This document shows, in pieces, positions 2,835-9,760 of a DNA stretch of 44,255 nt. Position 1 is the stretch's first letter. Each line of letters starts with the position of its first letter. The notes under the pieces were generated by a model, which saw nothing but the letters and a program-made list of their open reading frames with translations, was not told where the DNA came from and made no database searches. The DNA comes from a virus (taxonomy: Duplodnaviria > Heunggongvirae > Uroviricota > Caudoviricetes), in IMG/VR virus record IMGVR_UViG_2690316062_000005. One strand, given 5' to 3'. Position numbers and translations under genes: made by a program.

Positions 2835-5800
2835 TTATGCCTGAGTACGCAGCGCTTCAAGGCGGCGCAGGTCGAAGTCGTTCAGTTCGTCGGTGTAGTC
2901 AGCAGTGATTGGCGCTGGCCATTCACCTGTGTCGAATCCGGTTGCGATATTGCGCATCGCTTTGCGGTACTCGAGCATACCCAGCTCCAGTAGTTCAGCG
3001 GATGCCTCGATGATGGCGATCCAGTGGTAGTTCTCGTCTTTGTTGACGAAAATCCAGAAGAACTGATCCAGCGCTGCGGTTTCGCAGTACATAGCCGCGC
3101 TCAGGTGATAATCACGTTCAATAATTTCCCGGTGTAGCCTGGCGCGCAGGCTTTCCTGCTTAACATTCCACATGCTGATGGTTTTCAGGTCTGCACCTAT
3201 ACGCACGCCATCCAGGTCGATCTCAAGGTCAGGGCGCACACGAACTTCCAAGCCCGTCTCCTCGTCAAAACCAAAGTAGCTCACCTCAACGGCTCGGCTA
3301 GGGTGGGTCAGCAGCATGCCGGCGGTCGGGTGTGCCAGAAGCGCTTTTTGAATATTCAGCGCGGTGCTCAGCTGCTGGCGGGTGACCAGCACTTTTCCTT
3401 CCGGGTTATCGCGCCAGGCATCCAGCAGTTCGTCGGCAAATACGGCATCTGGTTTGACTGCCTTCACGGCCTGGATCATGTCTGCTTTGGTACCGGACAC
3501 TTTCAGTGGTGCCGGTTTCTGTGCTTCCTGAGCCACAAGGTCAGGGTTGATGATTGCCAACTGCTCCAGCAGCGCGTCACGGCTGCCGCTGGTTTTAACC
3601 GGCGGCGGCAGGGTGGCGTTGTACTCTTTAATGCATGCCTTCATTGCCGTCGCCGTCTGCTTCTGGTCACCATCAATACGCTGGAAGTCAGCTGGCAGCG
3701 CCATATAGTTCTGTGCCGTTTCTTCCAGGTTAGCGCCAAGCGGAACCTGCGGCGGCAGGGTGGCGTTGTACTCTTCCAGTAACACCTTGATGTCGTCGGC
3801 AGACAGCAGCGCCGGCAGGCTGGCATTGTGCTCATCGATAAAGGCGCGCAGGGTCGCGGCCGTTGTGAATGCGCCTTCAGGGATCACCGGTTCAACGCTG
3901 AATTCTGCGTCCAGTAGTTCAGGCTGCAACGCCAGCGCATGCACCAAGTTGCCCATGTCCAGCACCGCTGAGCGCTCTTTGACGATGGTTTTCTCTACGT
4001 GGCGCGCATTGAAGTACATCAGCGAAACGCGCGCATCTTTCACCTGGGTTGAGCTGATGCCGTTGGCGGCGTGGTAAACCTCGTTTGGCAGCCCTTCATA
4101 GCGGCCTGGCTCGAAATAAGCGGGATAAACAACAGCTGGTTCGTCAGATTGCGCTTCTGGCTCGGTTTGTGCTGCAACTGGTTCGGTTTGGCTTACAGAA
4201 TCGCTATTTTTGGCGACAGAATCCGTATTCTGGTCTACATCGTCCTTCTGGCTGGTATCTGACTCTTCACCAGACTCCAGACTGCTTTCGCCTGGCTGTA
4301 CTTCATCACCAGCTTGTTTTTCATCACTGACAGTTTCTTGAACCTGCACATTGCTGGTGGTCTCCGTAGCCTTTTTCGTGCCATGAGTTGCTGAGTTCTG
4401 CAGCAAAGCCGTAACGTCGAATATTCCGTTGCCGACATTTTTAACCAGTTCTTGTTCGACTTTCTGCGGTTGTGCTGCCGCTTCCTCTGCGCGGCGGCGT
4501 GCTCCTTCTTCACGCACGCGTTGCAGGTTCTCTTCGTGAGTGCAGAAGGATTTGCGCGGAGACTCCTTACCTTCAGGTTGGGGAATTTCCTGTGCTGCGG
4601 GTTCAGCCTCATGCAACGGCAATAACTCGACCGCGGAATTGAACGCGGCTGTCATGGTCTGGTTAACAAATTCCAGGTGAGCGACAGGAGTTAAATGAAT
4701 ATTTTCCGGTGCGATACGTACCAGGTTAAAAATAGCCGTGCGGTTAACACCCAGAACGCCTGGCTGATTGCGCAGGATGTTGCTCCATGATTTCCATGGT
4801 TCTTCTTTTTTGGTCACGATTTCTTTAGCGCGACGAAGAATGCTGCCCGGGATCTCGAAGTGGTTGAAGTCCATAGGCAGAAGGGCACACGCAATCTCTA
4901 AATCGAGAGTGTCCAGTGTGTGGTGTGCGTCAGGTCCACGGTCAGTGACGTAACCGCCGTCGGCATTAGTGCCGGAATCAGTACGCTGCACACTACTGAT
5001 GCGATTACCGGCGGCCCATTCGCGAACGAGGATACCGCGGTCGATGTGATCTGTAGCGAACCACAATTTCAAAAACTGGATTAAGGTTGCGAGTTCAGGG
5101 ATTTTTCCATCGACAGGGAAGACTTTCTTAACGGCATTCACGACTTTATGAATATCGTGCTCAATGGCTTTTTTGAATGCTTCCACATTCTCAGCTGCCA
5201 GCAGCAGGTTCTGGACGTACGCGTCATCGGTGTCCATCTCAAGGCGGACAATCTCATTTTTCTGCCCTGCGTCGATGTGATAGAGATATTCACCATCACC
5301 GATGAACTGAGCCAGTACGCGCTGGCGGAATGGCAGGGTGGCAACAACGATCAGGTTCGGTTGCTGTGTCTGCTGGGATTGCTCTTCGGTATCGACTTCA
5401 CCATCAACGACGCCACCTTCTGCCCGGCCGTTCTCGTCGGTCTGGATACCGTCCTCAACAGTGAGATCTTGACCCGTTGTAACGTCAGCAGCGTTGCTGG
5501 TTTCAGTTTTGAGCAACTGCAACTTACCACTGCGCCAGTCTTCTACCAGTTGATTGCGGTCACCGGCATCGGTGTTCACCCAGTCAGACATGAATGCAGC
5601 GATCAATCTTGGTTCGTGCTCTTCGTCTGGTGTGAAAATGTCCTTAACCGCCCGAATCATTTTCCACTCAGCATTCAGGCTGAGTTTGGCGGTCGCGGGC
5701 ACATCGTTCCTTGCCACAAGCAGGCTATGGAGATATGTATTGCCTTCATCCAGTGACATTTCGCTGGCAGCCAACTGCTGCTCTTTAGTGACGTGGGTTT

Positions 5801-6224: not shown

Positions 6225-6363
6225 GTGAGATCCTCATTTTTGGGTGTTAGAATCCCCGGACCATTGATAGCGCCCATTGGGTTAACTTTGGTTTTAATGT
6301 TGTTTCCGGTGTAACTTTGGTCGGTACCACCGGACGTAGATCCCGCCTTGCGCGGGTTTTACG

Positions 6364-6525
6364 TTAGCCTTCGTGAGCCATCTGGTCGTGCGAAGCGCAA
6401 CGTTTGGAGCAATACTCTTTTTCTTTGCGCGCCAGCTGTGAGCCGTTGCGATAGAGAAGGGTGCTCTTGATTACTTCCTCCGTTTTAACCGGCTTGCCGC
6501 AATATCCGCATTTCTTGTCTAACAT
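6364..6525 (-). CDS. Small zinc-ribbon protein (53 aa), not in the supplied ORF track
   Basis: Hand translation MLDKKCGYCGKPVKTEEVIKSTLLYRNGSQLARKEKEYCSKRCASHDQMAHEG; CxxC ... CxxRC; strong GGAGGA RBS 6 nt upstream of ATG, directly after the stop of the upstream ORF. Confidence 0.45.
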   Translation of the reverse strand: MLDKKCGYCGKPVKTEEVIKSTLLYRNGSQLARKEKEYCSKRCASHDQMAHEG

Positions 6526-6536
6526 GACATCCTCCG

Positions 6537-6902
6537 CTAGTGGCTGAGTCCATGCCCCAGACCGTTCAGATAAACTTCAACCAGCAAATCCCTGGTGTAA
6601 GTCATCTCAACGCCGCGATGCAGATACAAACGACCACGAGCATTAGCTGATGCCGTCCAGGTTGAATCCTTGTGTTTGACGAGCATTCCAGGCTGAACTG
6701 CGCCGCGGTTTACCGTCTGTGTACCGTAGTGCTGATGAACCATGATGTTCTCCACTATTGCTGAGTGAACTTCGCTGGTGGTGCCGTGACGCTGATCTTC
6801 ACAGTTGAGCGTTTTAACTCTGCAGTTCACCACCGCGAAACCCACTCTTATGTGCCTGTCTTTTATCCACTTCAGGCTCGGTGGTATGCTGGTAGTTCTC
6901 AC
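6537..6902 (-). CDS. Hypothetical protein (GTG start)
   Basis: 121-aa ORF; start codon is GTG with no clear RBS; its stop abuts the RBS of the zinc-ribbon ORF. Composition unremarkable; weak support. Confidence 0.3.
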   Translation of the reverse strand: MRTTSIPPSLKWIKDRHIRVGFAVVNCRVKTLNCEDQRHGTTSEVHSAIVENIMVHQHYGTQTVNRGAVQPGMLVKHKDSTWTASANARGRLYLHRGVEMTYTRDLLVEVYLNGLGHGLSH

Positions 6903-6922: not shown

Positions 6923-7216
6923 ATGAAATCAGTAACTAAGCCATGTCCTATTTGTGGTGAAGATTCTTTGTCTTTTAACCAGACAAATCAGTTGGTTAAC
7001 ATCAAAGTAAAACCACCAACTATTCGTGAAGTTCCATCAGTGGTTTACGTTTGCGATACTCACGGATGGTTTTCACTTTCAGAACAGATAAACAGACTCG
7101 TCACATCTAATGACGACCCTGCGGCTAAGCAAAAACTGGCTGTTATTGTCAAAGAGCGATATGTGCCGGAACAGGATCAGCCGTTAGCCCTGAAACCTAT
7201 TGAGTCGCTCGCATAA
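6923..7216 (+). CDS. Small zinc-finger protein (YgiT/MqsA-type zinc-ribbon-like)
   Basis: 97 aa; AAGGA RBS 8 nt upstream; CPICG...(about 30 aa)...CDTHG arrangement; on opposite strand to the surrounding leftward early operon. Confidence 0.45.
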   Translation: MKSVTKPCPICGEDSLSFNQTNQLVNIKVKPPTIREVPSVVYVCDTHGWFSLSEQINRLVTSNDDPAAKQKLAVIVKERYVPEQDQPLALKPIESLA

Positions 7217-7931: not shown

Positions 7932-8564
7932 TTACTTTGATTTTTCCTGTTGGTGAAGTACTCGTGGAGTAGTTGGTTCTTGAGGTAATTGGATGATAAC
8001 AGGTTGCTGCGCTACTGGTTGAACTACGGGCGGATCACTCTTCAAGGCAGAAACAAGACTAGGTAATGCAACGACAACCGCAATGATAACGCCAAAAATA
8101 GCAAGCCTAGTGGAAATACCTGATTGAATACCGCCAATCGCAGTGTTTATTCCTGTAATTTGCCCTTGTATACCTTCGAATTTGCCATTGATGGCTTTTA
8201 CATCCCCATCAACGCTATCCATTTTCCCTTCAATTTTAGAAGAAATAGAGCTAATAGATGAATTGAGCGATGCCAGCTGAACGTTCATATTCTCGCGTGA
8301 CAAAGCCATTTCAGCTCTAATCGAAGATGCAATGGACTCCATCTCCGCCTTATTGGCAGCTAGAAGTGCTTGCATTTCTTCACGGCTAACTGATGACATT
8401 TCATTTCCCCCATCAGTTTCATTAGCTTCATCTGTTGATTTGATAAAGTTAGTATACATTTCTTCTTTATCGACGCGTAGTCTGTTTTGAACATTGGGGT
8501 ACAGGTCATCTTTATCAATGCCAGAACCGCAGTCTGGGACAGCTTTGAGAGATGGGCCCATCAC
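7932..8564 (-). CDS. Coiled-coil protein with C-terminal transmembrane anchor (unknown function)
   Basis: 210 aa; strong AAGGAG RBS; helical repeat-rich middle; hydrophobic segment LAIFGVIIAVVVALPSLVSAL near C-terminus then Pro/Gln-rich tail; start overlaps stop of upstream gene. Confidence 0.6.
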   Translation of the reverse strand: MMGPSLKAVPDCGSGIDKDDLYPNVQNRLRVDKEEMYTNFIKSTDEANETDGGNEMSSVSREEMQALLAANKAEMESIASSIRAEMALSRENMNVQLASLNSSISSISSKIEGKMDSVDGDVKAINGKFEGIQGQITGINTAIGGIQSGISTRLAIFGVIIAVVVALPSLVSALKSDPPVVQPVAQQPVIIQLPQEPTTPRVLHQQEKSK

Positions 8565-8923
8565 TTCCCATCCTCTCCTTGATCTTCTTTTCTTTTATTA
8601 ATCAGTGTCCTGGCTTTTTTATAAGAAAAAAGCAGTACATGTGCGCAGTGATCACACGTGATTCGAAATAGTGGCATACCGCCAGGATATGTCACAGCAC
8701 TATCAGTATCAGGTTTGTATTGTGCATAACTAAGTGTTTCGATCACATGATGTTTTGGCTGATTTTCTTCTACATCAAGATCAAAGGCACCAACTACAGA
8801 CCATGACTGGTTCCCGCAGATTTGGCAAGTTATTGGTTTTTTGAATGAATTTATGAAATCAATGAACTCATCCGCTGTGATAATCTCGGAGTTTGCTTCA
8901 CTATGAAATAATTCCGATTTCAT
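8561..8923 (-). CDS. Zinc-ribbon protein (unknown function)
   Basis: Start moved to internal ATG (MKSELFH...) with AAGGA RBS; CQIC ... CDHC pair; 120 aa; 44 bp downstream of cI on the same strand. Confidence 0.55.
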   Translation of the reverse strand: MKSELFHSEANSEIITADEFIDFINSFKKPITCQICGNQSWSVVGAFDLDVEENQPKHHVIETLSYAQYKPDTDSAVTYPGGMPLFRITCDHCAHVLLFSYKKARTLINKRKEDQGEDGK

Positions 8924-8967
8924 AATTATGATCCTTTTCTGGGCCAAAGTAGATAAAAAGTACAGTT

Positions 8968-9651
8968 TTACAATCGGTTATACTTTATTGATTCATGAAT
9001 CAATGCCTTACCCATTACGTAGAGTTGATCCTGATTACCTTCGTTAATGTACCACTTCTCATAAGCTGAGTTATCAGACAAAACTGCCAACCTATCGCCC
9101 TGCATCTGCAAGCGCTTCACATGGAAATGTTGTCCGAAAACGAACGCATAAACACCGTCGACCTTGAAGTTTCTTACAGAAATATCGAAAAACAATCTGT
9201 CACCAGACTGTATAGTTGGACACATGCTGTCGCCATCGACCGTCATTACTTTTACGTCTTCCTGAGAACGATTTCCGAAGAGTGAACGAGCGTGTTCGGT
9301 TGTGAACTCAATGGCGTGTAGAACCTCAACAAACTCAGAAATCATGAAAGAACCTGGCCCCGCGCTAAATGTCAGGTCAAGTACGTCAACTCTGAATATG
9401 TTTGAGTCTTTTTTTGTCGCGGTAATGGGAGGCGGTAGCTGGCCATCGTTACGCATCGGTCCGGATCCCGTGGAAAGCCATTCAGGGCGAACATTGAGAA
9501 CAGAAGCTATCTCGACCGTTTTTCTTGAGCTTGATGCACCATTTAGCAGCTTGTTAACACTTGACTGTGCCATGCCAACTGCCTTAGCTAGCTTGCCCTG
9601 TGTATAACCCGCCTCATTCATTGCGCGATCTAATCGCTCAGAAAAACTCAT
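8968..9651 (-). CDS. cI: CI-like prophage repressor (HTH + S24/LexA-type autopeptidase domain)
   Basis: Start set at MSFSERLDRAMNEAGYTQGKLAKAVG (HTH); C-terminal GDSM (Ser) and HVKRL (Lys) dyad of S24 peptidases; divergent from cro with operators between. Confidence 0.85.
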   Translation of the reverse strand: MSFSERLDRAMNEAGYTQGKLAKAVGMAQSSVNKLLNGASSSRKTVEIASVLNVRPEWLSTGSGPMRNDGQLPPPITATKKDSNIFRVDVLDLTFSAGPGSFMISEFVEVLHAIEFTTEHARSLFGNRSQEDVKVMTVDGDSMCPTIQSGDRLFFDISVRNFKVDGVYAFVFGQHFHVKRLQMQGDRLAVLSDNSAYEKWYINEGNQDQLYVMGKALIHESIKYNRL

Positions 9652-9679
9652 TAAAGATACCCCCCTAATAACCTTCATA

Positions 9680-9760
9680 AATATTATCGCCACAGCGATT
9701 AATAAGCAAAAAATCGCATAGGCGATTGACATTCGTTAAAGCGATAAACATAATCAACCT
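9680..9760. promoter_or_regulatory. Immunity switch: two 14-bp palindromic operators with divergent pRM / pR promoters
   Basis: ATCGCCACAGCGAT (9686-9699) and ATCGCATAGGCGAT (9713-9726); pR -35 TTGACA (9726-9731) and -10 CATAAT (9749-9754), 17-bp spacer; pRM on minus strand -35 TTGCTT (9704-9709) and -10 TAATAT (9681-9686), 17-bp spacer. Confidence 0.55.

Follow-up and report, generated by a model that had tools for sequence, protein, structure and literature searches.

The question raised by this locus is whether a short reading frame of a tailed-phage genome encodes a protein and, if so, what this protein might do. The window, i.e. the whole stretch of 44,255 nucleotides (nt) analysed here, is virus record IMGVR_UViG_2690316062_000005 (Caudoviricetes). 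The open reading frame (ORF) in question has 53 codons and lies on the minus strand at 6525..6364, with an ATG at 6525-6523 and a TAA at 6366-6364. It was missing from the first-stage ORF track because the length cut-off of this track was above 53 amino acids (aa). The ORF is almost certainly ydaE, a gene of the YdaE family, and judged by its conservation it is a genuine protein-coding gene which is already known and annotated, not new. The explanation that accounts best for the locus as a whole, with a probability of about 0.5, is that it is the ydaE gene of a Rac/Gifsy/mEp237-type prophage, encoding a zinc finger that would serve the RecE/RecT recombination module.

The initial annotation had described a 53-aa ORF at 6364-6525 with a near-ideal ribosome binding site (RBS), and this ORF is present. 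Its start codon is preceded by the Shine-Dalgarno (SD) sequence GGAGGA at 6535-6530, as had been noted; the spacer to the ATG is 4 nt (TGTC), not 6, and the strand, which had been left unstated, is the minus strand. The duplex predicted between the anti-SD at the 16S 3' end and the ydaE start (-10.1 kcal/mol) is stronger than those of kil (-6.4 kcal/mol) and recE (-6.1 kcal/mol). The ORF had also been described as juxtaposed to an upstream ORF of 121 aa. The tight spacing holds, since only 11 nt separate the stop codon of the upstream gene (TAG, 6539-6537) from the ATG of ydaE and the SD region straddles this stop, whereas the upstream gene itself is a 68-aa Kil. The product, MLDKKCGYCGKPVKTEEVIKSTLLYRNGSQLARKEKEYCSKRCASHDQMAHEG, is a basic protein of 53 aa (computed mass 6 kDa, isoelectric point (pI) 9.0). 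The reported CxxC...CxxRC pattern is found in it as C6-x2-C9 ... C39-S-K-R-C43.

Taken by themselves, the length of the ORF and the combination of SD and ATG are not beyond chance. The window contains 218 six-frame ORFs of at least 53 aa. It has one GGAGGA-N4-ATG where 0.27 would be expected, and 22% of shuffles contain at least one. That ydaE is a real gene is concluded from its conservation (family model, substitution pattern and cysteines) and not from these features. The protein matches the NCBIfam model NF041288 ("YdaE family protein") over model positions 1-50 of 50 with 94.0 bits (cut-off 35, E 4e-27) and PHROG 1520, a family of unknown function, with E 1e-27. A search of 5.8 billion proteins yielded 58 homolog clusters, every one of which carries Pfam PF27493, an entry that postdates our local Pfam copy. 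These clusters are often named "YdaE family protein" and come from Citrobacter, Enterobacter, Klebsiella, Kosakonia, Erwinia, Salmonella and E. coli. The same 162 nt recur unchanged in 32 complete E. coli genomes, where the annotation pipeline PGAP calls the gene "YdaE family protein" (e.g. WP_000884659.1), and gp32 of the lambdoid phage mEp237 (YP_007111405.1) is the identical protein. Identity to YdaE of the E. coli K-12 Rac prophage (b4526), from which the family was founded, is 40% (E 1e-10). Altogether ydaE is conserved in more than 50 species and more than 500 viral contigs.

Pooled from 81 unique coding sequences, the ratio of nonsynonymous to synonymous substitutions (dN/dS) amounts to 0.21 in the ydaE frame. 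Of the other five frames, four give 1.0-1.5, and the antisense frame aligned at the wobble positions gives 0.34. An alignment of 27 diverse homologs shows no variation at C6, C9 and C39 and a conservation of at least 90% at C43, where the exception is a frameshifted copy; in 76 unique variants from 127 loci all four cysteines and a C-terminal DQMAHE are invariant. Purifying selection and invariant cysteines thus identify ydaE as a genuine gene. The initial annotation had proposed to look for conservation of the ORF and its cysteines in homologous regions, and both are conserved there.

The position of the gene was analyzed in 52 species-level genome loci, 47 of them with enough flank, in the 80 closest viral contigs and in a collection of 50,697 phage records. 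Neighbours were classified by phmmer, and RecE was counted when it lay within 1.5 kb downstream of ydaE. RecE follows ydaE in 46 of the 47 species loci, and the sole locus without it holds a distant CCHC variant from a Bryobacteraceae metagenome-assembled genome (MAG). The same holds for all viral loci (78/78); in five of them the recE ORF is cut by the end of the locus, and RecE was detected there by tblastn in 5/5. YdaE of the window type or the K-12 type occurs in 22 phage records, all of them among the 33 records with a RecE N-terminal domain. YdaE is a dispensable accessory which never travels without recE. In the window, kil lies upstream of ydaE and recE and recT lie downstream; therefore the locus is an early-left operon of a Rac/Gifsy/mEp237-type lambdoid prophage. 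The placement in a lambdoid early operon given by the initial annotation is hence borne out.

The Bryobacteraceae MAG (L135, 3959-4165) is the only non-enterobacterial genome match, its third ligand is apparently a His (…NYHRSKGCAAYDQMAHEG), and there is no RecE nearby. Two further loci, L086 ("Atopobium" MAG, 1491 nt) and L094 ("Geodermatophilus sabuli", 517 nt), carry near-identical enterobacterial kil-ydaE sequences on tiny contigs. Their presence in genomes of Actinobacteria is most likely due to assembly or binning contamination.

For the fold of the protein we applied AlphaFold2 (AF2) with the family alignment. It places a knuckle at C6/C9, a beta-hairpin at residues 19-27/30-38 and a helix at 41-46 that starts from the second cysteine pair. 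Models of a Kil-YdaE fusion protein show the same YdaE architecture, with a helix (112-122) running through the DQMAHE tail, and the five models reach a predicted local distance difference test score (pLDDT) of 74-81. Because C39/C43 sit at the helix start in the AF2 models, the fold is predicted to be a treble clef of the eL24/TRASH/FCS type and not a two-knuckle zinc ribbon. The zinc-ribbon label of the initial annotation does not agree with these models, which are of moderate confidence and put the second cysteine pair at the helix start, not in the turn of a beta-hairpin. Sequence searches of the PDB with YdaE gave nothing significant, the best E values being 0.005 (PF0385) and 0.06 (eL24), and eL24 is also the best profile match in the PDB. 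Scores for Rtr1 and DUF7576 are below the Pfam/NCBIfam cut-offs, and no catalytic signature was seen in the YdaE sequence. The RefSeq product of K-12 ydaE is "zinc-binding protein". Work by Blindauer from 2002 is said to have found that K-12 YdaE binds one zinc ion via four cysteines in a GATA-like finger. From the homology to K-12 YdaE, we infer that the window orthologue may likewise bind zinc.

An exhaustive profile search of 1.84 billion representatives returned 111 relatives, about half of which are 180-230 aa long. In these long forms the YdaE domain is located at the extreme C-terminus and almost always ends with ...YCSxxCxxxDQMAHEG-stop. The long forms average 28% identity in their alignment, with C, Y, C, YC, C, Q, H, E and G invariant, and no Pfam family matches their divergent N-terminal region. 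Their genes lie in early regions or regions of DNA metabolism on unrelated phage contigs, most of them low in GC, next to DnaB-like helicases, replication initiators, an Erf-like annealase with an exonuclease, and methyltransferases. This context would be compatible with a role in DNA transactions but is not diagnostic.

Taken together, ydaE would be transcribed from the minus strand as part of a repressor-controlled early-left operon kil-ydaE-recE-recT and translated from its own strong SD, 11 nt past the kil stop. The protein would fold round one Zn2+ held by Cys6/Cys9 in the knuckle and Cys39/Cys43 at the helix start, with a long basic beta-hairpin and an invariant C-terminal helix ending in ...DQMAHE-x-COOH. 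Wherever the finger occurs, it forms the C-terminus of its protein. It may thus be a small non-enzymatic module that binds protein or nucleic acid and serves RecE/RecT recombination. Candidate partners are RecE with its large N-terminal region, DNA ends, or a factor that limits RecET. In some lineages YdaE may be coupled physically or translationally to the upstream early protein, which is Kil or a 38-aa peptide. A service to RecE/RecT is suggested because recE and recT are the only genes invariably linked to ydaE. A non-catalytic binding module tied to RecE/RecT, for which we infer partner and role, is therefore put forward as a tentative proposal. A narrower version seems rather improbable, in which YdaE would be a subunit devoted to RecE-type modules, with an accessory or regulatory task, and would dock for example on the N-terminal half of RecE or on a host factor limiting RecET.

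Several points weigh against a role in the RecE/RecT module. YdaE must be called dispensable because 11 of the 33 RecE-positive phage records do without it and because Shigella phage POCJ13 has the same kil-hyp-exoVIII-gam-recT module (hyp, hypothetical) as phage phiSTEC1589-Stx1c, but without ydaE. The distant long forms are not next to RecE. In mosaic phages the steady adjacency of ydaE and recE may mirror linkage and not function. Recombineering with plasmid-borne recE/recT works without ydaE. In the literature we found no experiment linking any YdaE to RecE/RecT, and no paper that assigns a mechanism to E. coli YdaE. Moreover, the AF2 prediction for the single domain is of moderate confidence, with a pLDDT of 81.7 for the best model and 48-60 for the other four.

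Among the other explanations, the strongest is that YdaE is a co-factor or modulator of Kil. Both proteins would then form a joint unit acting on cell division (FtsZ), in which YdaE would target, stabilise or temper Kil. We consider this unlikely, although the two genes are closely tied in several respects. In addition to the 11-nt gap with the SD over the kil stop in the window, kil and ydaE overlap by 1 nt in K-12 Rac and by 4 nt in phiSTEC1589-Stx1c. In-frame Kil-YdaE fusions of 124-127 aa were found in five species of Atlantibacter/Phytobacter; they form six clusters at 90% identity with about 300 members, down to 56% identity, all with PF27398 and PF27493. There are at least two types of linker, one of them translated from what is usually the kil stop and SD region, and because of these different linkers the fusions have probably arisen more than once, which suggests independent fusion events; they are also maintained.

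However, Kil is located upstream of ydaE in only 17 of the 52 species loci, as a separate gene in 12 and as an in-frame fusion in 5. In 33 loci the upstream gene is unrelated, namely a short peptide of 38-42 aa (MIDFARKP...LAQKGNPDV) in 20 and a 65-aa protein (MNTLFALVLT...) in 13, and in the remaining 2 none was detected. The upstream neighbour of ydaE has been swapped through mosaicism. Conversely, Kil of the window type occurs in 146 phage records, mostly without YdaE, versus about 22 records with YdaE. In the AF2 model of the fusion two domains are well folded, namely Kil, predicted with confidence as all-beta (pLDDT about 90), and the YdaE finger. The linker between them is of low confidence, and no fixed Kil/YdaE interface is confident in the model (predicted template modelling score 0.49). 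Finally, YdaE is also fused in frame to the short peptide (P0066/P0069), and fusion may merely mirror overlapping frames. An obligate partnership with Kil was thus rejected as a general explanation, given the 33 loci with other upstream genes and the lack of YdaE in most Kil phages.

The short peptide ORF that replaces Kil is conserved and encodes 38-51 aa (MIDFARKPxRQQAVKLN..LCYLLAQKGNPDV), and its stop overlaps the ydaE start by 8 nt. It is present in many prophages of Enterobacter, Leclercia and Salmonella.

Less probable than a Kil co-factor, and doubtful on balance, is the host-takeover factor suggested by the initial annotation. YdaE might act as a YacG-like finger that binds and inhibits a host topoisomerase or another enzyme of DNA transactions. 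The gene belongs to an early operon and adjoins the host-directed Kil, and YdaE has a motif in common with the gyrase inhibitor YacG; hhalign of YdaE against E. coli YacG gave a probability of 54% over 42 columns with 33% identity. However, the YacG family hidden Markov models (HMMs) score YdaE far below their cut-offs (13.8 vs 25.5 bits for Pfam PF03884 and 15.1 vs 79 for NCBIfam NF002362), and YdaE does not have the extended C-terminal tail. In K-12 screens the ydaE deletion was less susceptible to the T6SS (type VI secretion system), overexpression raised the kanamycin minimal inhibitory concentration (MIC) 3-fold, and transposon (Tn) insertions were enriched under chemical stress. These phenotypes are weak and possibly polar within the kilR-recET operon, and they were not used as mechanistic evidence. 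No toxicity and no host target of YdaE were found in the literature, and overexpression was tolerated in an ASKA-type screen. In addition, ydaE is missing from the equivalent module of POCJ13, and its sole invariant linkage is to recE and not to host-directed genes.

An RNA-binding regulator, in which an eL24-like basic finger would act on the recE 5' leader or on the small RNA IsrB and tune recE/recT, is again less probable and can be given little weight. It draws on the nearest neighbours in fold and sequence, which are rRNA-binding eL24 proteins, on the basic pI of YdaE and on the structured spacer that ydaE abuts. This spacer fills the 139 nt (6225-6363) from the end of ydaE to the start codon of recE. 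Its conservation extends over about 40 enterobacterial species and exceeds that of ydaE; it contains four hairpins, and 7 base pairs show compensatory changes. The plus strand carries a promoter-like site at 6225-6253 (GTGAGA-17-TAGAAT with TG) and a terminator consisting of a GC hairpin (6342-6356) and a T-run to 6362, which ends 2 nt from the ydaE stop codon. The Rfam model isrB (RF01386) matches 6266-6362 of the plus strand over its full length with 28.6 bits (E 0.002), below the gathering threshold (GA) of 35. The homologous spacers of Dryocola and Atlantibacter (L101/L114) score 37.8 and 36.8 bits, which is over the threshold, and the isrB copy of Gifsy-2, immediately upstream of sbcA/recE, reaches 99.3 bits. 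IsrB-1 and IsrB-2 were mapped experimentally as antisense RNAs of 88 and 94 nt between sbcA and STM1010/STM2631 (PMC2330248). Position and orientation of the spacer element in the window match those of the mapped Salmonella IsrB.

A strand test based on G-U/A-C counts was mixed, with hairpin 3 favouring the mRNA strand and hairpin 2, with one case, the antisense strand. We favour the antisense (plus) strand for the spacer RNA, based on the Rfam match, the promoter and the terminator. By its sequence, the window carries a probable divergent IsrB-like small RNA (sRNA), with its own score below GA. Such an antisense RNA in the recE leader was known only from Salmonella, and the window suggests that modules of this type carry it generally throughout Enterobacteriaceae. 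As a target of YdaE, however, it does not fit the K-12/racC-type loci, which keep ydaE without the IsrB hairpins.

In two close relatives of the prophage (L005 and L006, ~4160-4800), with RecE 99.8% identical, an insertion of ~640 nt between ydaE and recE displaces the IsrB-type spacer. Its frame begins with MREKLSLARLKELLSYSPETGAFTW..., and we suspect that it encodes a homing-endonuclease-like gene.

A zinc chaperone or metallothionein-like zinc buffer is very improbable. Such a function is hinted at by a weak match to the prokaryotic metallothionein family PF02069 (15 vs 33 bits, residues 31-47 only), and a passage of PMC6892955 labels YdaE as "SmtA-like zinc finger" and "zinc-binding chaperone", citing Blindauer 2002. 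However, four cysteines are enough for a single structural site only, and the gene is silent in lysogens and sits in a phage recombination operon. In pig E. coli isolates ydaE was present in 16-53% depending on the zinc-MIC class (three classes) and was thus not ubiquitous (PMC6892955). A chance reading frame with a fortuitous SD, although the window is rich in frames of such length and the SD-ATG pattern alone is not significant, is practically ruled out by the family HMM, the dN/dS, the cysteine conservation and the wide distribution given above.

The features of the locus and of its relatives are collected in Table 1. For the gene upstream of ydaE there are matches to PHROG 294 ("Kil protein for bacterial septation inhibition", E 2e-35), from aa 48 of the long ORF onwards, and to the FtsZ inhibitor model NF008465 of NCBIfam (E 7e-16), and the identity to K-12 KilR is 34%. 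In E. coli and mEp237 the gene is annotated as a coding sequence (CDS) of 207 nt, and homologs are named "cell division inhibitor protein". The start at 6743 has its own SD-like GTGGAGAA. By these matches, the 121-aa ORF starting at 6902 (6537-6902, minus strand) is a maximal ORF that over-extends the 68-aa Kil. RecE of the window has 1129 aa compared to 866 aa in K-12, with a long acidic centre of low complexity, and family matches are limited to the N-terminal ~100 aa (PF06630) and the C-terminal nuclease (PF12684). The gene order kil-ydaE-recE-recT corresponds to kilR-ydaE-(racC)-recE-recT in Rac. The K-12 genes kilR, ydaE, racC and recE are silent in the lysogen and are jointly derepressed ~40-fold or more upon loss of RacR (PMC6765115, PMC11014345, bioRxiv 10.64898/2026.09.06.749655). 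By analogy, the S24 repressor of the window likely controls the early operons. According to the ORF layout the prophage is complete, since the remainder of the window holds genes for replication, lysis, terminase, head and tail. Two further proteins with Cys motifs are encoded in the early region, one of 97 aa at 6923-7216 on the plus strand (CPICG..., PHROG 31519, with a weak Lar-like match) and one of 128 aa at 8561-8947 on the minus strand (CQICG...CDHCAH, PHROG 4293).

Table 1. Coordinates of ydaE, its neighbours in the window and related features in other loci.
Feature	Position	Strand	Basis or identifiers
ydaE CDS, YdaE-family protein, predicted single-zinc finger, C-terminal DQMAHEG	6364..6525	-	ORF list, NCBIfam, PHROG, identical DNA/protein elsewhere, dN/dS
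Shine-Dalgarno GGAGGA	6530..6535	-	1 nt past kil stop codon, 4 nt before ydaE ATG; read from sequence
kil, KilR-like cell-division (FtsZ) inhibitor, 68 aa	6537..6743	-	PHROG 294, NF008465, K-12 KilR identity
recE, exodeoxyribonuclease VIII, 1129 aa	2835..6224	-	PF06630, PF12684, NF007259, PHROG 607
recT-like annealase, 372 aa	1711..2829	-	homolog "RecT family recombinase" right after recE in E. coli and mEp237; phmmer matches in loci
Putative IsrB-like sRNA gene, antisense in ydaE-recE spacer	6266..6362	+	Rfam RF01386, promoter/terminator scan, conservation
cI/LexA-like S24 repressor	8968..9732	-	Peptidase_S24 and HTH_3; PHROG 4 transcriptional repressor
Short peptide ORF	L091-L100, L106, L112, L116, L118, L126 etc. 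~3870-3996; Gifsy-2 L218 2386-2502; PHB10 L216 3338-3493		
Kil-YdaE fusions	L105, L114, L115, L122, L124 (~3776-4159)		proteins P0062, P0170-P0173
Long forms	loci L136-L141, L164		proteins P0075-P0169

The finding is the rediscovery of an annotated gene family and as such changes little. Its value lies in the leads to a function of YdaE, which is present in K-12 and encoded next to recE/recT, the workhorses of recombineering. These leads are the strict linkage to recE, the recurrent fusion to Kil and the invariant C-terminal tail, which is common to ~200-aa phage proteins. If YdaE were a subunit of RecE modules, the RecET systems of recombineering would have a third component that has gone unrecognised.

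YdaE can be compared with several known systems. The treble clefs of eL24, TRASH and FCS(MYM) proteins are the class to which its predicted fold points; there is no significant sequence homology (E 0.06), and YdaE differs from these fingers by an invariant DQMAHE-x C-terminus of its own and by its setting in a phage operon. SmtA holds a multi-zinc cluster. YdaE differs from SmtA and BmtA, the cyanobacterial metallothioneins, by having four cysteines for one site and no metal cluster. With YacG (DNA gyrase inhibitor, PF03884) it has in common a C4 finger and the motif CxxCGK...[FY]CSKRC...D. However, YdaE contains a beta-hairpin insertion of 14 residues and stops 10 residues past Cys43, whereas E. 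coli YacG runs 33 residues past its last cysteine. In the structure of gyrase with YacG, this C-terminal tail reportedly contacts GyrB.

The gene order in phage lambda is kil-gam-bet-exo, and ydaE occupies the slot that Gam has there, between kil and the genes for exonuclease and annealase. However, YdaE and lambda Gam have no similarity in sequence or fold. The operon of phiSTEC1589-Stx1c is kil-ydaE-hyp-exoVIII-gam-bet, in which YdaE and a Gam-family gene occur together. The idea of YdaE as a Gam substitute is weakened by this coexistence, and for the same reason YdaE cannot simply be equated with a Gam of the RecET phages.

Closer counterparts are found within the family itself. K-12 YdaE belongs to the same NF041288/PF27493 family and occupies the same slot of an early-left operon between kil and recE. 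It has the four conserved cysteines, the YCSxxC motif and the C-terminal DQMAHE tail. It differs in the first cysteine pair, which is CxxxxC (CAYHLC) compared to CxxC in the window, and its identity is only 40%. In K-12 Rac, racC is located between ydaE and recE, the IsrB-type spacer hairpins are absent, and the kilR stop overlaps the ydaE start by 1 nt where the window has an 11-nt gap. The STM1010.1n-type YdaE of Gifsy-1 and Gifsy-2 in Salmonella is 67% identical; its gene is located upstream of sbcA/recE, and IsrB is found in the leader region of recE. There, however, a 38-aa peptide overlapping the ydaE start replaces Kil, and STM1010 is an additional gene between ydaE and isrB/recE. The closest counterpart is gp32 of mEp237, annotated there as hypothetical protein only: together with WP_000884659.1 it is 100% identical to the protein described here, with Kil encoded upstream and RecE/RecT downstream, as in the window.

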